A DNA stretch of 64,000 nucleotides from Candidatus Cloacimonadales bacterium (GCA_963662275.1 OY759316.1:608001-672000); one strand, 5' to 3'. Numbered from the stretch's first letter, positions 2,527 through 54,825 are shown. A program made the numbers and translations. Notes: generated by a model not told the origin, from the letters alone.

Positions 2527-3747
2527 ATGAAAAAAACTTGGATAAGAATTATAATAATTGTCATCGTCATTCTGTTTGCCTGGAGAGTTTATTTGAAGAT
2601 AAACCAGATAAAATCAAAGGGTGACGCTGGTAGAGGTGGTAAGAATCGCAATGCAGCGGTGGTTGTCGAACTTGCGACTATTAATAAGGAAACCGTTAAG
2701 GATATAGGGAAATTCAGTGGTTCCTTGTCACCACGTTCGCGAATAATCATCTCCCCTAAAGTTTCTGGAAGATTAGAAAAATTAACTGTGGATATCGGCA
2801 GTATTGTGAAAAATGGACAAGTAGTTGCTCAACTTGATAGTGGAGTTTATGAACAGGATATTAATCAAGCAAAAGCTGCCTTAGCTATCACAAAAGCCCA
2901 AGTGAAGGAAGCGGAAAGTGCTTTAAAAGTATCCGATACGGAATTGGCAAGACAACGGACTCTTTTAGAAAAGGCGTATATATCTCAAGTAGAAATTGAT
3001 CAAGCTGAAAATCAGAATACTTCCTTAAAAGCAAAACGAGATGTAGCTCTTGCAACTGTTCAACAAAAAGAAGCAGCACTTAAGGCTGCCGAGATTCAAT
3101 TAGCATATACTAAAATTCATGTTTCTTGGGACGATGGTGGCAAAACACGTATTGTCGGTGAAAGATTTGTGGATACAGGAGAAATGCTGACTTCCAATTC
3201 TCAAATCATCTCTGTTTTGGATAATAGTTCAATGACAGCAGAAATCGATATTATCGAAAGTGATTATTCTAAAGTCAAAATTGGGCAGGAAGCTGTAATC
3301 ACCGCTGATGCGTATCCGGACAAACAATTTGTTGGGAAAATAGCCCGTATTTCTCCTCAATTAAAGGAAGATTCCAGGCAAGCTCGTGTTGAAATTGATA
3401 TTCCCAATTCTAATGGGCTCTTGAAACCGGGTATGTTTGCCCGGGTCTTCATTGAATTTAAAACTCATCCTAATGTTCCGATCGTTCCTATGGCTGCACT
3501 TACCCAAAGCAAAGGCGTTCAAGGTGTGTATCTTGTCGATAAGCCAACCATGACCGTTAAGTTCATACCTATTAAAACGGGGATACAGCAAGGGGATATG
3601 ATCGAAATCGTGGAACCTCTCATCCAGGGTGAAGTTGTCACATTAGGAAATAACTTATTGGAAGATGGAAAGAAGATACGTTTACCAAAAACAGATAGTT
3701 CAGACAAGAAAACAGGTGGGAAGAAAGGACAAGGTAAACGTCCATGA
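2527..3747 (+). CDS. RND efflux periplasmic adaptor (membrane fusion protein)
   Basis: N-terminal TM anchor, PKVSGRLEKL-V-G--VK-GQ lipoyl motif, coiled coil, LKPGMFARV. Confidence 0.92.
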   Translation: MKKTWIRIIIIVIVILFAWRVYLKINQIKSKGDAGRGGKNRNAAVVVELATINKETVKDIGKFSGSLSPRSRIIISPKVSGRLEKLTVDIGSIVKNGQVVAQLDSGVYEQDINQAKAALAITKAQVKEAESALKVSDTELARQRTLLEKAYISQVEIDQAENQNTSLKAKRDVALATVQQKEAALKAAEIQLAYTKIHVSWDDGGKTRIVGERFVDTGEMLTSNSQIISVLDNSSMTAEIDIIESDYSKVKIGQEAVITADAYPDKQFVGKIARISPQLKEDSRQARVEIDIPNSNGLLKPGMFARVFIEFKTHPNVPIVPMAALTQSKGVQGVYLVDKPTMTVKFIPIKTGIQQGDMIEIVEPLIQGEVVTLGNNLLEDGKKIRLPKTDSSDKKTGGKKGQGKRP

Positions 3748-6990: not shown

Positions 6991-7263
6991 TTAGGAGCTG
7001 GTTAGGAACTGGTTAGGAGCTGACTAGGATCTGACTAGTACCTGCTTACTACCTCATATAGGTGCCAAGAGTGTACGGTAGTGGCATCCTTCAGGTTGCC
7101 TTTTCTCATATATACTACCTCATATAGTTGCCAAGAGTGTACCACAAGGATTCCACTAGTAATACAAAAAAGTTTGAAAAAAGATACGAATAAAGCCTCT
7201 TCCTAAGAAAATCTAAGAAAGTCTAGATGATCCCTAGATGATGCCTAGATGATCCCTAGATGA
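6991..7263. repeat. Intergenic cluster of degenerate 11-bp tandem repeats plus a 30-bp direct repeat
   Basis: TTAGGAGCTGG-like x5 (6991-7044); TACTACCTCATATAGKTGCCAAGAGTGTAC at 7047-7076 and 7113-7142; CTAGATGATCC-like x~4 (7223-7263). Confidence 0.8.
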
Positions 7264-7350
7264 AACATACCTCAAAAAGAAAGTGCGAAGTGCGAGGTTC
7301 GAAGTCAGAAGTTCCGGAGAAAAGTAGCGATTTGCGGTAATATCTTAGCT

Positions 7351-7692
7351 ATGTATAGCGGAACAAACTATACTGCACAATTAGTTAACTACGCATGGTA
7401 TAGTGCAAACGCTAGTGGAACTACCCATACTGTAGGTACTAAGACAGCAGATGAACTTGGCTTATTTGATATGAGTGGGAACGTTTGGGAATGGACTTGG
7501 AATATCAATACTTCATATCCATCCGGTGCTCAGACTAACCCGCATGGTGCGGTCAGCGGATCTTACCGTGTGTTTCGCAGTGGTAGTTGGCAACTAATTG
7601 CGGATTTCTGTACCGTTTCCAGTCGTAACTTCAACACTGCGACTACCAAAGCTGGTGATTTCGGTTTCCGCTGCGTCAGGATAGCCCCTTGA
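7351..7692 (+). pseudogene. C-terminal fragment of an FGE-sulfatase/SUMF1 (C-type lectin fold) protein
   Basis: ELGLFDMSGNVWEW and RVFRSGSW...FGFRCVR motifs. It lacks the N-terminal half seen in the paralog at 27469-28401 and has no clear RBS. Confidence 0.75.
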
Positions 7693-7916
7693 TAGGAAAG
7701 TTAAGGTTTTAGAGTTCCAATGAAAATCGGTTTTGAAGTCCGAATTTCCTATTACTCAGTATTCGTAAAAGACTCGAAGGAAATTTGAACTCCAAATCCT
7801 TAGCTTTCATGTGAAATTCAAAATCATAGATAGCTTACTATAGGAAGGTTAGAAAATTAAGGTAGAAAAACCTCCCTCGTTGATATACATAGATCAAATC
7901 AACAAAGGAGGTAACA

Positions 7917-9194
7917 ATGATTACCACATCAAAATCTAACCCAAAGAGGTTTTTTGTCAACTCAGAAATGATGCTTGTTGGCATTGATATCAGCAAGCAC
8001 AAACACAGTGTGTATTTTTGTGATTTTACAGGTGAACGGAAGCGTAAGCCATTTTTTATTACAAACAATCATGATGGTTTTCAGTATCTGCTAAAAGAAG
8101 CAGAACAGCAAAAGCGTTTGTGGAATCTGAACGAGATTGTATTTGGAATGGAACCAACAGGTTCATATGTAAAGCCACTCCAGTACTTCTTGGAAGAACG
8201 CTGCTATCAAATCCAAAGCATCAACCCATTACACACTAAAAGATGGAAGGATATTGAAGATAATCATCCATCCAAGAATGATTTGAAAGACAGTATTATC
8301 ATTACCTCTCTGTTAAGAATGGGCAAGAGCATCCATCATCGGAGACCTGAAGGTGTTTTCGCGGAGTTGAACAACTATGCAGCTTATTATCACCAGTTAA
8401 TCACAGATATTCGCAGGCAGAGGAACTATCTGGAAGCCTCTTATGCCTGTTACTTTCCTGAATTGAGTAACTTTTTCAAATTTAACAGTACGGGAGTAAT
8501 GTATATCATGGAGTGTTTTCCTCTTCCTCAGGATATCGTAAATGCAGGATATGAGAATTTTCTGAAGATTATGAAAACAAAAAGCAAAGGGTGCATAGCT
8601 ACAGAGAAGCTTCACAGTTTATATCAGGTATCTCTAACAAGTATTGGCATGAGTCAGGGAGCGGATAGTGCGAGAGTGGTCATAAATGCGATCTATGAGG
8701 ATATCAGCTATAAACAATACCATCTCAAACAAATCAAAACAGCAATCATGACATGTGTAGATAAAATCAGTTATGGATCGTTATTGGTGACAATACCTGG
8801 TTTGAGTAAAGTATCAGTGGGGTTAATTCTGGCGGAGACTGGAGATATCAATCAATATGGTCGATATCAGGATTTAGTCAAACTTGCCGGATTGAGTTTA
8901 AAACACAATCAATCAGGAGAATACCATGGGCAATATCATATCTCTAAGGTAGGAAGAGTAAGGTTGCGAAGGATCTTGTATATGCTTACTCTGGAAATGA
9001 TTATAAACAATCAATTAATCAATCAGATATATAATTATCAAGTAAAAAAGCGAGGTAATAACAAGGTCAAAACTATCGTTTCTTTGAGCAGTAAATTACT
9101 GGGAATCATGTACTCAATGGTTAAATATGAAAGGTCGTTTGATCCTGAACAGCGAAAGCTATATGCAGGTTATTTAACTGAAAATAATCAGTGA
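7917..9194 (+). CDS. IS110-family DEDD recombinase/transposase
   Basis: GIDISKHKH, GMEPTG, KNDLKDS (RuvC-like DEDD); TIPGL...ILAETGDI...LAGL...QSG...ISKVG C-terminal Tnp domain. Confidence 0.95.
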   Translation: MITTSKSNPKRFFVNSEMMLVGIDISKHKHSVYFCDFTGERKRKPFFITNNHDGFQYLLKEAEQQKRLWNLNEIVFGMEPTGSYVKPLQYFLEERCYQIQSINPLHTKRWKDIEDNHPSKNDLKDSIIITSLLRMGKSIHHRRPEGVFAELNNYAAYYHQLITDIRRQRNYLEASYACYFPELSNFFKFNSTGVMYIMECFPLPQDIVNAGYENFLKIMKTKSKGCIATEKLHSLYQVSLTSIGMSQGADSARVVINAIYEDISYKQYHLKQIKTAIMTCVDKISYGSLLVTIPGLSKVSVGLILAETGDINQYGRYQDLVKLAGLSLKHNQSGEYHGQYHISKVGRVRLRRILYMLTLEMIINNQLINQIYNYQVKKRGNNKVKTIVSLSSKLLGIMYSMVKYERSFDPEQRKLYAGYLTENNQ

Positions 9195-9237
9195 GCCAAG
9201 AAAAAAAAGTAGTCAAAAAATAATGGAGGTGTTTAGA

Positions 9238-9410
9238 TTGGTTCACTCGCCGGATGATGTAGTCATTAGGCACTAAGGCTTGTTTACAAGACCTTCTACC
9301 ATAGCTCATTATAGCACACCGGCGGGTATTATCTCAGATAGGATAAAGTAAGAATAGGATACCATCAGAAGGTAATCCAGTATATCAGCAAGATCGGGAT
9401 GTAGAACCAA
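9238..9410 (+). ncRNA. Predicted bridge/seek RNA of IS110 copy 1
   Basis: Closing stem TTGGTTC/GAACCAA encloses two stem-internal loop-hairpin domains whose loop strands match the insertion targets and the donor junction (see findings). Boundaries are approximate. Confidence 0.75.
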
Positions 9411-9469
9411 GAGAGCTTTGATAAGTAATATTCGATTTAATCATAGAATTCAGATCGAAAATCAGCGTC

Positions 9470-9524
9470 TCTGGAACCCTGCAATGACGCTTCGGTACCC
9501 TACGCGTCATTGCAGGGTTCCAGA
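9470..9524 (+). terminator. Perfect 21-bp hairpin in the IS110 right end (terminator or processing site)
   Basis: TCTGGAACCCTGCAATGACGC (9470-9490) / GCGTCATTGCAGGGTTCCAGA (9504-9524). No clear U-tract, so the function is inferred. Confidence 0.55.
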
Positions 9525-10000
9525 AAGCCAAGTACTATGAATATATTATAATATATAACTATCTAACTATATCAGCTTAATGTGTCGTCTTCCAGACTTT
9601 TTTTGCAAAAACTTTAGGTGGTATTTTTGTTAGATCGTAAATCCAGTAAGGACTTCCTGGGCTAACAGAGTTACGTCCTGCGGACTGGTATTCTACAGAT
9701 TACCGCCTGAAGTCAGCGGTACAAGACAACCGGCTGAACCCGGAGCCACAGGATAAGAACCGTTTCTCACTTTTCCTACACATTCTCTTATCCCTCTCTT
9801 GAAGAAGAAGTTATAGACTAGAGAAAGAATCAAACTCTCCGACACTAAAGTGCCACCTCTCTTTATCCAAAGAGAGGAATGGTTCCCCCTGTACGCTGTA
9901 CGCTGTACGCTGTACGCTTCTGCCATCCTTTTCCTTGACAATGGTTTCATCTAATAAAATTTAAAGACAGAATACGAGTAACAAATAAGGAGTTAGAGGC

Positions 10001-12076
10001 ATGGATCAGCATCGAATTGCTTCACATCCGATTCTTAACGTGCCGGAGCGGGAAGATATTCCTTTTTACTGGAATAAGATTCTGCTTACGGCAAAAAAAG
10101 ACGAGATGATTTCATCTGCACTCATTGCTAATGGCATTCACGTGTTTGGTCATCATCATAAGGATGGTTCTGCACAAGGTATATTCTGTGCCAATGGGCA
10201 ATGTGCAAAATGTTCTGTTATTGCGAATGGGGTCATTGTTAAATCCTGCATGACAGCAGTGCAAAAGAACATGGTCGTGGAAAGCGCAGACGGATTACCG
10301 GATCTGATTGATCTTGGTGAAGTTCCTTCCACACAAGAAATTGAAGAACTGGAAACTGATATTCTGATCATCGGTGGTGGACCTTCGGGTCTGGCTGCTG
10401 CAATTCAACTTGGTAATCATAACCTGCATGCTTTATTGATTGATGATAAAAATGAACTCGGTGGAAAGTTGGTTCTTCAAACTCATAAGTTCTTCGGTTC
10501 GCAGGAAGATTCCTATGCCGGTACTCGAGGTATCGATATTGGCAAGCTCCTGGCGGATAAAGTGAATCAATTATCTACAATACAAGTCTGGATGAATAGC
10601 ACTGCTCTTTTCGTGTTCAGTGATAAGAAAGTCGGTATTTTGAAAGATGGTGTCTATAAAATTGTGAAAGCGAAAGTCATCCTGAATGCAGCCGGAGCAA
10701 GGGAGAAGTTCTTGCGCTTTACTGGCAACACATTGGCTGGTATTTACGGAGCAGGTGCCTTTCAAACTTTGGTCAATCGTGATCTTGTAAAACCTACGGA
10801 AAGATTATTCATCATCGGTGGGGGAAACGTGGGTCTGATTGCCGGTTATCATGCTTTACAAGCTGGTATTCAAGTCGTTGGACTGGCAGAAGCAATGCCG
10901 CAATGCGGTGGCTACAAAGTTCATGCAGATAAACTGGTACGTTTTGGTGTGCCGATCTATACATCTCATACGATCTTATCAGCGAACGGAAAAGAGTCAG
11001 TGGAATCAGTCACGATTGCAGAGATCGATAATAAATTCAAACCGATACCCGGTACGGAAAAGACATTTACTTGCGACACAATCCTGATAGCTGTGGGTCT
11101 TGATCCTTTAAGTGAATTCACGATTGAAGCAAACGAAGCCGGTATTCCCATCTATTCAGCAGGAGACGCACTTGAAATAGCGGAAGCTTCCTCAGCCATG
11201 TTCAATGGTAAGATCATGGGTCTCAAGATAGCAAAAGATCTGGGTGCTGAGGTGGAAGATATTCCGGATGAATGGTATCAGAAGGCAGAAGTCCTGAAAT
11301 CACATCCCGGTGGAATCTTCCCTTATCCTGAAATGACAGTGGAAGAAGGTGTCATGCCCATCATTCATTGCCTGCAGGAAATTCCCTGTAATCCTTGTAC
11401 GACTGTCTGTCCCACCATTTCCATCAATATTGAAGACGGAACTCTGATGGGTCTTCCCAAATATACGGGAAGCTGCATCGGCTGTAATAAATGCCTGCTG
11501 ATTTGTCCCGGACTGGCAATTACGCTAGTCGATTATCGGAAGGATAAAGAATTTCCGACCGTGACCATTGCTTATGAAATCAGCAATATGCCTGTGAAGG
11601 TCGGTGATTTTGTTGATCTTGTTGAAATTGAAGGCAATGATCTTGGCAAGGCGGAAGTGACAGTAGTTCTTCAGAATCCGAATGTTAAAATGCAATTGAT
11701 CAAGATGAAAGTTCCAAAAAATATAGCTAAACGTGTTGCTTCTTTCAGGGTACAGAATGTGGAAGTGACAAAGCCTTTGGCACATGCGATCATTTCCAAT
11801 CATACACCTGATGATTCAATGATATGTCTTTGTGAGCGTGTGACAGTTGGTGAAGTACGTAAACTGATTCGGGAAGGGATAACGGATTTAAACCAGATTA
11901 AGGCTGTTACCAGAACCGGCATGGGACCTTGCGGAGCAAAGACATGTGATGTGATGATTCGATCTTTATTCCGTGAAGAAGGTATTCCCTTTGAGGATGT
12001 GGTTCCCAACACGAAACGTCCTGTTTTCATTGAAGTTCCACTCGAAAAGTTCGCAGACCCGAAGAAGAAGGCTTAA
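10001..12076 (+). CDS. Multidomain FAD/Fe-S oxidoreductase (sarcosine oxidase alpha / proline dehydrogenase alpha-like)
   Basis: N-terminal 2Fe-2S (CANGQCAKC), GGGPSG FAD site, 4Fe-4S motifs (CNPCTTVCP, CIGCNKCLLICP), C-terminal BFD-like (ICLCERV...GMGPCG). Confidence 0.85.
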   Translation: MDQHRIASHPILNVPEREDIPFYWNKILLTAKKDEMISSALIANGIHVFGHHHKDGSAQGIFCANGQCAKCSVIANGVIVKSCMTAVQKNMVVESADGLPDLIDLGEVPSTQEIEELETDILIIGGGPSGLAAAIQLGNHNLHALLIDDKNELGGKLVLQTHKFFGSQEDSYAGTRGIDIGKLLADKVNQLSTIQVWMNSTALFVFSDKKVGILKDGVYKIVKAKVILNAAGAREKFLRFTGNTLAGIYGAGAFQTLVNRDLVKPTERLFIIGGGNVGLIAGYHALQAGIQVVGLAEAMPQCGGYKVHADKLVRFGVPIYTSHTILSANGKESVESVTIAEIDNKFKPIPGTEKTFTCDTILIAVGLDPLSEFTIEANEAGIPIYSAGDALEIAEASSAMFNGKIMGLKIAKDLGAEVEDIPDEWYQKAEVLKSHPGGIFPYPEMTVEEGVMPIIHCLQEIPCNPCTTVCPTISINIEDGTLMGLPKYTGSCIGCNKCLLICPGLAITLVDYRKDKEFPTVTIAYEISNMPVKVGDFVDLVEIEGNDLGKAEVTVVLQNPNVKMQLIKMKVPKNIAKRVASFRVQNVEVTKPLAHAIISNHTPDDSMICLCERVTVGEVRKLIREGITDLNQIKAVTRTGMGPCGAKTCDVMIRSLFREEGIPFEDVVPNTKRPVFIEVPLEKFADPKKKA

Positions 12077-52778: not shown

Positions 52779-52868
52779 GTTGGAACGCTGTTTTCAAACG
52801 GCTATGCTCTGCACTTCGGAATAGCCTAATAAATTAAGCGTTCCACCATTTGAAAATAGCGTTCCAAC
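52779..52868. repeat. Small inverted-repeat element with GGAACGC termini
   Basis: GTTGGAACGCTGTTTTCAAACGG...CCATTTGAAAATAGCGTTCCAAC; its left 31 bp recur exactly at 48789-48819. Confidence 0.75.
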
Positions 52869-52872
52869 AACA

Positions 52873-53038
52873 AATTCCCGTAGGGATGATAGATATTAAC
52901 ACTGGATTTCAATCCGGTGATATGACTGAAAATCTTCTAATTCCCATAGGGAAGAAAGATATTAACACTGGATTTCAATCCGGTGATATGAGACCCGGCA
53001 CTTTTCCTCTGAATCTCGCAGAGATGAAATCCCATAGC
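52873..53038. repeat. Tandem two-hairpin REP-like units; the third unit is interrupted by IS110
   Basis: TTCCC-RTA-GGGAW...CACTGGATTTCAATCCGGTG at 52873 and 52939; relatives at 49169-49240 and 58268-58356. Confidence 0.75.
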
Positions 53039-53120
53039 TTACTATAGGAAGGTTAGAAAATTAAGGTAGAAAAACCTCCCTCGTTGATATACATAGATCA
53101 AATCAACAAAGGAGGTAACA

Positions 53121-54398
53121 ATGATTACCACATCAAAATCTAACCCAAAGAGGTTTTTTGTCAACTCAGAAATGATGCTTGTTGGCATTGATATCAGCAA
53201 GCACAAACACAGTGTGTATTTTTGTGATTTTACAGGTGAACGGAAGCGTAAGCCATTTTTTATTACAAACAATCATGATGGTTTTCAGTATCTGCTAAAA
53301 GAAGCAGAACAGCAAAAGCGTTTGTGGAATCTGAACGAGATTGTATTTGGAATGGAACCAACAGGTTCATATGTAAAGCCACTCCAGTACTTCTTGGAAG
53401 AACGCTGCTATCAAATCCAAAGCATCAACCCATTACACACTAAAAGATGGAAGGATATTGAAGATAATCATCCATCCAAGAATGATTTGAAAGACAGTAT
53501 TATCATTACCTCTCTGTTAAGAATGGGCAAGAGCATCCATCATCGGAGACCTGAAGGTGTTTTCGCGGAGTTGAACAACTATGCAGCTTATTATCACCAG
53601 TTAATCACAGATATTCGCAGGCAGAGGAACTATCTGGAAGCCTCTTATGCCTGTTACTTTCCTGAATTGAGTAACTTTTTCAAATTTAACAGTACGGGAG
53701 TAATGTATATCATGGAGTGTTTTCCTCTTCCTCAGGATATCGTAAATGCAGGATATGAGAATTTTCTGAAGATTATGAAAACAAAAAGCAAAGGGTGCAT
53801 AGCTACAGAGAAGCTTCACAGTTTATATCAGGTATCTCTAACAAGTATTGGCATGAGTCAGGGAGCGGATAGTGCGAGAGTGGTCATAAATGCGATCTAT
53901 GAGGATATCAGCTATAAACAATACCATCTCAAACAAATCAAAACAGCAATCATGACATGTGTAGATAAAATCAGTTATGGATCGTTATTGGTGACAATAC
54001 CTGGTTTGAGTAAAGTATCAGTGGGGTTAATTCTGGCGGAGACTGGAGATATCAATCAATATGGTCGATATCAGGATTTAGTCAAACTTGCCGGATTGAG
54101 TTTAAAACACAATCAATCAGGAGAATACCATGGGCAATATCATATCTCTAAGGTAGGAAGAGTAAGGTTGCGAAGGATCTTGTATATGCTTACTCTGGAA
54201 ATGATTATAAACAATCAATTAATCAATCAGATATATAATTATCAAGTAAAAAAGCGAGGTAATAACAAGGTCAAAACTATCGTTTCTTTGAGCAGTAAAT
54301 TACTGGGAATCATGTACTCAATGGTTAAATATGAAAGGTCGTTTGATCCTGAACAGCGAAAGCTATATGCAGGTTATTTAACTGAAAATAATCAGTGA
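53121..54398 (+). CDS. IS110-family DEDD recombinase/transposase
   Basis: Protein identical to 7917-9194. Confidence 0.95.
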   Translation: MITTSKSNPKRFFVNSEMMLVGIDISKHKHSVYFCDFTGERKRKPFFITNNHDGFQYLLKEAEQQKRLWNLNEIVFGMEPTGSYVKPLQYFLEERCYQIQSINPLHTKRWKDIEDNHPSKNDLKDSIIITSLLRMGKSIHHRRPEGVFAELNNYAAYYHQLITDIRRQRNYLEASYACYFPELSNFFKFNSTGVMYIMECFPLPQDIVNAGYENFLKIMKTKSKGCIATEKLHSLYQVSLTSIGMSQGADSARVVINAIYEDISYKQYHLKQIKTAIMTCVDKISYGSLLVTIPGLSKVSVGLILAETGDINQYGRYQDLVKLAGLSLKHNQSGEYHGQYHISKVGRVRLRRILYMLTLEMIINNQLINQIYNYQVKKRGNNKVKTIVSLSSKLLGIMYSMVKYERSFDPEQRKLYAGYLTENNQ

Positions 54399-54441
54399 GC
54401 CAAGAAAAAAAAGTAGTCAAAAAATAATGGAGGTGTTTAGA

Positions 54442-54614
54442 TTGGTTCACTCGCCGGATGATGTAGTCATTAGGCACTAAGGCTTGTTTACAAGACCTTC
54501 TACCATAGCTCATTATAGCACACCGGCGGGTATTATCTCAGATAGGATAAAGTAAGAATAGGATACCATCAGAAGGTAATCCAGTATATCAGCAAGATCG
54601 GGATGTAGAACCAA
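54442..54614 (+). ncRNA. Predicted bridge/seek RNA of IS110 copy 2
   Basis: Same sequence as 9238-9410. Confidence 0.75.
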
Positions 54615-54825
54615 GAGAGCTTTGATAAGTAATATTCGATTTAATCATAGAATTCAGATCGAAAATCAGCGTCTCTGGAACCCTGCAATGACGCTTCGGT
54701 ACCCTACGCGTCATTGCAGGGTTCCAGAAAGCCAAGTACTATGAATATATTATAATATATAACTATCTAACTATATCAGCCTAACGTGTGAACGTCAGGT
54801 AACATATCCCCCAAACACCATTAGA

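Follow-up and report, generated by a model that had tools for sequence, protein, structure and literature searches.

The question raised by this locus is whether the non-coding DNA that follows the recombinase gene of an insertion sequence in a Candidatus Cloacimonadales genome specifies an RNA which directs the element to its targets and, if it does, how that RNA reads both the target and the element itself. The stretch of DNA that was analysed, hereafter the window, is 64,000 nucleotides long (GCA_963662275.1 OY759316.1:608001-672000), and a preliminary description had read an IS110 bridge RNA with four guides into its positions 9238 to 9410. It is our conclusion that positions 9238-9409 of the + strand are, in all likelihood, the guide RNA gene of an intact 1742-bp IS110-family insertion sequence, the RNA itself being a prediction. 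Element and guide RNA together add a clear new case to an RNA-guided recombination system that is already known; they are not a new kind of system. The element is intact and has recently been active and expanded; its expression, the binding of the RNA by the recombinase and the formation of circles are assumed by analogy with better known members of the family.

The 1742 bp are made up of an interior (7835-9573) and one AGC core. Copy 1 has its left AGC at 7832..7834, preceded by the target flank ...CATAGAT, and its right AGC at 9574..9576, followed by the target flank TTAATG..., the two junctions reading ...CATAGAT-AGC-TTACTATAGG and ...CTATATC-AGC-TTAATG on the + strand. The left end is short (82 nt, 7835..7916, + strand) and begins with TTACTATAGG, which is the right donor half; the right end of this copy measures 379 nt. 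A second copy, identical letter for letter, lies on the same strand at 53036..54780 in the target CCAT-AGC-CTAACG, with its recombinase gene at 53121-54398 and its RNA at 54442-54613. A whole-genome search revealed six copies, two of them inside the window, all 100% identical over the full length of the element. AGC stands on both flanks in 6/6 copies and, since the empty paralogous sites carry a single AGC, insertion takes place at a three-base identity with the element's own joined ends and without duplication. Among the contigs of public DNA runs the repeat unit forms one piece, 7830-9576, at approximately five times the depth of its flanks (230.5 vs 43.9 and 48.5 in run X1; 93.2 vs 13.7 and 15.3 in run X3). 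The contigs of four runs over 7400-10000, which drop rare forms, contained no joint corresponding to the circle junction or to the empty site of this locus.

The targets rebuilt from the six copies are AGAT-AGC-TTAATG, CCAT-AGC-CTAACG, AAAT-AGC-CTAATA, ATAT-AGC-CTAATA, TCAT-AGC-CTGTAG and ACAC-AGC-CTAAAG. Compared with CCATAGCCTAATG, the target predicted from the guides, they agree at 10, 12, 10, 10, 9 and 10 of 13 positions, respectively. The first two belong to the copies in the window, for which the preliminary description had correctly given the targets, the element ends (TATATC...TTACT) and the level of agreement (12/13 and 10/13); its expectation that further copies would lie at related sites also held, all six being nnAT-AGC-CTAAnn-like with 9-12 matches of 13. 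The preferred target is about ATAGCCTAA and lies mostly in repeated intergenic or tandem-repeat sequence. Three of the sites belong to families of repeats in which other members are still empty. GATCAT-AGC-CTGTAGTGG is present in five tandem copies that adjoin one occupied copy, seven sites resemble AATAGCCTAATAAAT, and more than 20 CACAC-AGC-CTAAAGGAG units occur within a 110-bp tandem array. The best-matching sites are unsaturated: many sites equal to the occupied ones are still empty, and one occupied site matches at only 9/13.

Copy 1 lies on the margin of an intergenic repeat of ~100 nt (7720-7825), to which BLAST finds ~57-64 matches of 82-86% identity in the genome, and to the right of the copy is a short repeat (9830-9920, 35-88 matches) which ends in a GTACGCT tandem run. 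Approximately 200 nt upstream of copy 2 there is an unoccupied site, GGAAT-AGC-CTAATAAATTAAG (52818-52838), which differs by one base from each of the occupied sites of loci L003 and L004 over the 13 guide-read positions. Outside the window, on the minus strand of G000:C1 at ~3178560-3178590, one CACACAGC-CTAAAGGAG repeat unit contains the left target half followed by TTACTATAGGA, which equals the left end of the element over its first 11 bases; the repeat then continues. Either a footprint or a coincidence could account for this.

The recombinase (transposase) gene is intact and occupies 7917..9194 on the + strand. Its 425-aa product matches PF01548 (E 4e-26, residues 21-180), PF02371 (E 9.4e-16, residues 288-369) and NF033542, described as 'IS110 family RNA-guided transposase', against which it scores 177.2 bits for a cut-off of 140. 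The only solved structures to be matched were those of ISCro4 (9t56) and IS621 (8wt6), with E ~1e-11. The motifs GIDIS (D24), MEPTG (E79), KNDLKD (D122, D125) and QSG (S333) line up with both of these proteins, and D24, E79, D122, D125 and S333-G334 are unchanged in four relatives. The catalytic residues of IS621 we take to be D-E-D-D and the serine of its SG motif. Relative to the alignment with ISCro4 and IS621 there are ~70 extra residues, at query positions 180-271, in what Siddiquee et al. (PMC11187229) describe as the variable region that explains length differences in the family. The preliminary description had regarded a long, 425-aa recombinase as distinctive. This view had to be given up, since the length lies inside the ranges published for the family as a whole (300-456 aa; a recent review, PMC13604230) and for the IS110-proper subgroup (395-455 aa; PMC11187229). 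Ahead of the gene, in the left end, two 15-nt arms (7870-7884 with 7898-7912, 87% complementary) form a hairpin in which the GGAGG ribosome-binding site is paired with an upstream ACCTCC; this hairpin could limit translation of the recombinase from read-through transcripts.

The predicted bridge/seek RNA (9238..9409, + strand, ~172 nt; fold -48.4 kcal/mol, z -3.50) consists of two stem-loop domains inside a common outer stem, each apical hairpin being flanked by two internal-loop guides. The outer stem (9239-9244 with 9404-9409), which closes the RNA, is formed from unrelated sequence in the relative discussed below. The target-binding domain (9245..9327, 83 nt) has a closing stem of nine pairs, one of them U-G (9245-9253/9319-9327), a large internal loop and an apical hairpin (9275-9295). 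On the 5' side of this loop is the right target guide CAUUAGGC (9264..9271; DNA CATTAGGC), complementary to the top strand GC-CTAATG, and on its 3' side the left target guide CCAUAGC (9299..9305), which is identical to the top strand CCAT-AGC and would pair with the bottom strand. The donor-binding domain (9330..9401) is closed by 9330-9335/9396-9401 and 9337-9339/9393-9395, and it too has an internal loop and an apical hairpin (9357-9378). Here the right donor guide, AGUAAG (9347..9352), is complementary to C-TTACT, that is, to the last core base and the element's first five bases, and the left donor guide, UAUAUCAGC (9381..9389; DNA TATATCAGC), is identical to the element's last six bases plus the core. 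Together, AGUAAG and UAUAUCAGC would read the joined ends of the element, TATATC-AGC-TTACT, in the same way as the first domain reads the target. The distance from the guide reading the top strand to the apical hairpin that follows it is 3-4 nt in both domains, and that from the hairpin to the guide reading the bottom strand is 2-3 nt. The stem, the hairpin and the guide strings named in the preliminary description were all found where it had put them, and the order which it gave, with the right guide before the left guide in both loops, was borne out (9264-9271 lies 5' of 9299-9305, and the second loop is arranged likewise).

When this element is folded by itself, the closing stem is extended by AUGAUG/CAUUAU; the relative lacks this extension, and it was dropped. 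A scan for promoters and terminators gave six promoter-like sites, compared with 7.4 expected, and no terminators, and inspection by eye revealed no junction promoter. A search of 7000-10500 against Rfam release 15, with E up to 10, gave no gathering-score match. The best Rfam match, mir-616 (31.3 bits vs 100), corresponds to the long hairpin described further on and is spurious.

How far can the guides be recognized from the element alone? The right end, minus its last 20 nt, was scanned in both orientations against the profile of the six targets, using windows that include at least two core bases. With 7- and 8-nt windows this unbiased scan returned as best matches CCATAGC at 9299 and (C)ATTAGGC at 9264/9265; with 9-nt windows the best sense match lies elsewhere, at 9338. 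The right target guide is the best antisense match of the right end to the six targets (40/48) and the left target guide is the best sense 7-mer (33/42). These scores are not above chance. Dinucleotide shuffles did as well in 1362 of 3000 trials (7 nt) and 1119 of 3000 (8 nt), and random genome windows equalled the summed score of the target guides in 753/3000 (7 nt) and 454/3000 (8 nt). The earlier statement that the guides are readable from the sequence stands as regards their placement; the target-guide matches of the element alone proved no better than chance. As to the donor guides, the exact 9-nt match of the left one is reached by 35 of 2000 shuffles (P ~0.02), the 6-nt AGTAAG match of the right one is not significant by itself, and a donor test requiring at least two core bases gave no antisense donor match beyond 4 nt. 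Because short guides are easily found in a 360-nt A+T-rich stretch, the argument from the element's own sequence needed an independent test.

Such a test is offered by a Candidatus Cloacimonadaceae genome (G040), one of 61 related genomes, which contains seven copies of an element with a 52%-identical recombinase (loci L014, L018, L020, L022, L024, L026 and L027). These are inserted at nnGT-AGC-ATAG(G/C)(A/T)T, the target being GT-A(G/A)C-ATAGGA. The right ends of the two elements have a mean column identity of 78%, and their stems, hairpins and loop-flanking blocks are alike; the four guide segments differ. In the relative the right target guide changes from CATTAGGC to TCCTATGT (RNA UCCUAUGU) and the left target guide from CCATAGC to ATGTAGC (RNA AUGUAGC), each fitting its own target. 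The right donor guide changes from AGTAAG to GGCAAG, against a left end C-TTGCT, with one compensatory change, and the left donor guide from TATATCAGC to CATATCAGC. With positions and offsets fixed beforehand from the element in the window, the segments of the relative were scored against its own seven sites. The right target guide scored 41/56, rank 1 of 370 positions, and the left target guide 35/42, rank 1 of 371 (the left flank of L014, which has an aberrant left junction, was dropped). On the non-core bases only, the scores are 32/42 and 17/24, which random k-mers reach with P 0.0006 and 0.014, respectively. Swapped pairs of guide and target are at background (13/36, 10/24, 14/42 and 8/24), compared with 28/36, 15/24, 32/42 and 17/24 for the cognate pairs. 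The target guides are significant because the homologous positions in the relative are top-scoring against its own, different insertion sites. This settles the target-binding reading and amounts to a natural reprogramming of the target loop between the element and its relative.

The preliminary description had proposed a covariation analysis of homologous right ends. Folded to a consensus, the two RNAs share 40 pairs; two of these are changed on both sides, five on one side, and none is broken. Structural covariation is thin because only two RNAs can be aligned, and the z-scores of the folds are modest (-3.50 here, -1.58 in the relative). With the six insertion sites, the covariation with the relative supports an IS110 bispecific bridge RNA whose four guides lie as they had been placed.

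At the core, the right target guide of the relative reads AC/AAC and its left target guide AGC. The target lies in a repeat family, CATAG-N9-CTGTTG, with 29 sites (0 in controls), five of which are occupied right junctions; the other 24 follow GTAAC (12), GTAGC (8), TTAGC (1) or something else (3). In two insertions (L018 and L020) the left junction reads AGC and the right one AAC. Strand exchange inside a core with a mismatch would leave such junctions, which suggests that a mismatch at the middle core base is tolerated. The CATAG-N9-CTGTTG repeats are often found as inverted pairs, 77-118 nt apart (L052-L080 in the same genome).

In the public runs X1, X3, X4 and X5, contigs that fall on 9091-9263 agree with the conserved blocks and beyond them have the guide sequence of the relative, TCCTATGTTTAGAGGCTTGAAAGAAAGACC; an element with a guide of the G040 type is therefore present in these samples as well.

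For the donor loop the evidence appears consistent but is thinner than for the target loop. The right end, CTATATC, is common to both elements, and for this reason the left donor guide cannot covary; the left ends differ by one base (TTACT vs TTGCT; U vs C in the RNA). In the two-RNA consensus fold the donor domain has one compensatory pair, A-U to U-A. An alternative bears on precisely this part of the RNA, namely that the first domain alone is the guide, a target-selecting seekRNA, the second domain being a scaffold and the ends being recognised by the protein or by the flanking target halves. End recognition without RNA-donor pairing has been proposed by Siddiquee et al. for IS1111-type elements (PMC11187229), for which short seekRNAs of 82-96 nt suffice (PMC11187229, PMC13604230), and the first domain here has 83 nt. 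It is in keeping with such a proposal that a single compensatory change backs the right donor guide, that the left donor guide is kept from covarying by the likeness of the right ends, that the 6-nt donor match is not significant and that the 9-nt match is attained by 35 of the 2000 shuffles. Yet the second domain has exactly the geometry of the first (an antisense guide 4 nt ahead of a conserved hairpin and a sense guide 2 nt behind it), each of its two guides ends in core bases, the sole difference between the left ends (A vs G) is matched by U vs C in the RNA, and few shuffles contain an exact 9-nt match to the right end and core (P ~0.02). We consider a guide confined to the first domain improbable and prefer an RNA that reads target and donor alike.

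That the guide-like strings are chance occurrences in an A+T-rich non-coding end, the protein alone picking the target and the region being only a 3' untranslated or terminator sequence, would accord with the ease with which shuffles of the right end reach the target-guide scores (1362/3000 and 1119/3000). It is hardly credible in view of the relative, in which the homologous positions hold different strings that are top-ranked against a different target. The joint random expectation on the non-core bases is ~9e-6, swapped pairs are at background, the scaffold is kept around the rewritten guides, and RNA guidance is an established property of the family (PMC11208160, PMC11187229).

It is equally hard to credit that the functional RNA is a minus-strand transcript, antisense to the recombinase gene: the guides read both DNA strands, so that the matches alone leave the transcribed strand unfixed, and the scan identified no promoter on either strand, but the + strand folds better in both elements (-48.4 kcal/mol, z -3.50, vs -43.9, z -1.90, here; -44.2 kcal/mol, z -1.58, vs -37.2, z -0.94, in the relative), of the 28 pairs in the stems listed for this element three are U-G if the + strand is transcribed but mismatches if the - strand is, the left guide would read the top strand, opposite to the polarity of IS621 (PMC11208160), and the seekRNAs of IS1111 map to the recombinase strand (PMC11187229).

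For the bispecific + strand RNA, a mechanism may be proposed by analogy with IS621 and the IS1111-type elements. The 425-aa DEDD/serine recombinase would bind the predicted RNA and the element would be excised as a circle; the RNA would then bridge the circle junction and the genomic target, and strand exchange would occur at the common AGC core, without duplication.

Between the RNA and the right end lies a conserved long hairpin (9470..9524, + strand; 54674-54728 in copy 2) with a stem of ~21 bp and a loop of 13 nt, UUCGGUACCCUAC, which includes the palindrome GGUACC. In the relative (L018, ~3030-3085) the loop and the top of the stem (GACGCTYCGGTACCCTMCGCGTC) are fixed, and the remaining ~16-bp stem is fully rewritten and still pairs. 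In this genome the hairpin motif was found only in the six copies of the element, even with four mismatches allowed, and the terminator scan showed no U-tract at 9470-9524. A broader reading, tentative and in our opinion rather unlikely, is that the element and its close relative represent a rare, Cloacimonadota-restricted lineage which mixes both groups of the family and possesses a third, undescribed module, the long hairpin, required for the reaction or its control. If true, the lineage would combine a recombinase of the IS110-proper size class, without long subterminal repeats, with two simple IS621-like internal loops and an IS1111-like RNA position and guide order. The hairpin module, whether as RNA or as DNA, might for example serve in RNA processing or stability, in loop-loop pairing or in recombinase binding.

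The lineage is rare in the data searched. Relatives at E 1e-35 or better occur in 5/232 genomes of the phylum, and among 5.8 billion clusters only two proteins, both metagenomic, exceed 35% identity (56% and 49%). When the contigs of a species-level genome collection were scanned for two conserved RNA blocks, only G040 had the RNA: of the 11 stretches obtained seven are the G040 copies, and the other four were, on inspection, unrelated G+C-rich sequence. The RNA-block scan of metagenome contigs gave five stretches, all unrelated, and no confirmed related locus was obtained from genome contigs with a protein query or from metagenome contigs with a four-protein alignment as the query.

IS110/IS1111 RNA-guided recombinases are under development as programmable DNA-insertion tools, and natural pairs with the same scaffold and rewritten guides reveal which positions are free to program. 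The present pair of elements offers 13 natural insertion sites, an intact recombinase and a natural instance in which a change of the middle core base is tolerated, and the system is a reasonable candidate for bench characterisation. To the biology of the family it adds little beyond activity in Cloacimonadota and the targeting of repeated sequences there.

For this family, both the bridge RNAs described by Durrant et al. (2024, PMC11208160) and the seekRNAs described by Siddiquee et al. (2024, PMC11187229) are established. According to both papers, elements of the IS110 group have the RNA upstream of the recombinase gene and those of the IS1111 group have it downstream (PMC11208160, PMC11187229), and the order of the two target matches is reported to be opposite between the groups, the top-strand match being 5' in IS1111-type RNAs (PMC11187229). 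Siddiquee et al. had already noted subgroups of the IS110 family with a downstream non-coding region (PMC11187229) and, since these as well as lengths of 300-456 aa are in the published accounts, neither the position of the RNA nor the length of the protein is new. The published seekRNAs have short (82-96 nt) and long (148-172 nt) forms (PMC13604230, table 1), to which the 83 nt of the first domain and the 172 nt of the whole RNA are close.

Among named proteins the recombinase comes closest, with 24-32% identity, to transposases called 'IS110 family' on Bacillota plasmids, and to ISBth13 (24%). Like the transposases from plasmids of Anoxybacillus, Geobacillus and Bacillus (~30%) and that of ISBth13, it belongs to the ~400-430 aa class, the alignments extending over 92-95% of the query. 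In the two closest Bacillota relatives examined the gap downstream of the gene is 460-480 nt, compared with 170-250 nt upstream; ISBth13 has its long gap upstream instead (436 nt vs 122 nt). The RNA sequences of the Bacillota-plasmid elements are not alignable with the RNA of this element. On a plasmid of Bacillus sp. CMF21, loci L081, L083 and L084 are diverged copies (72-95% identical) of a 30%-identical relative, which start with GCAGCATTCC and carry GGGCAGCAT in sense orientation downstream of the gene; this hints that the polarity or order of the donor guides may differ in that group from those of the present element.

With the IS1111-type elements (ISEc11, ISKpn4, ISPa11) the present element has in common an RNA downstream of the recombinase gene and on the same strand (PMC11187229, PMC11208160). 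It also resembles them in that the guide reading the top strand is 5' of the one reading the bottom strand, here in both loops, in the overlap of the two matches at the crossover, in the absence of target duplication and in insertion into repeated sequences (PMC11187229). It differs from IS1111 in the size of its recombinase, 425 aa vs 330-350 aa, a comparison by published length, and in having no subterminal inverted repeat of 11-13 bp (7-17 bp in Durrant et al., PMC11208160). By eye, the ends of the element share only TATAG (5 bp) and then, after a 5-nt gap on the left, TTAGA; one 14-nt repeat involves the right end (7881-7894 with 9561-9574, 86%), its left arm lying 47 nt inside the element. 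The donor guides, moreover, lie in a simple internal loop, in contrast to the multi-loop of many IS1111 orthologues (Durrant et al., PMC11208160).

Like IS621 and ISCro4 (PDB 8wt6 and 9t56), the element has two protein domains and catalytic residues that can be aligned, and two internal loops, the target loop first and the donor loop second. As in IS621, the left guides read the bottom strand and the right guides the top strand, the core included (PMC11208160). In IS621, however, the RNA is encoded ahead of the gene, in the left end, and its left guide comes before the right one, and here both arrangements are reversed; an IS621-like layout is absent, the 82-nt left end holding the hairpin with the ribosome-binding site and the right end the guides. 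The protein similarity to IS621 and ISCro4 is remote (E ~1e-11), with the ~70 extra residues between 180 and 271, and donor and target have three bases in common (AGC), compared with the CT dinucleotide core of IS621. With the G040 element, finally, the element shares 52% protein identity, the RNA scaffold, the hairpin loop, the right end CTATATC and the core AGC. It differs from that element in its guides (UCCUAUGU/AUGUAGC in G040), in its target (GT-A(G/A)C-ATAGGA within CATAG-N9-CTGTTG repeats in G040) and in its left end, which is TTGCT in the relative.
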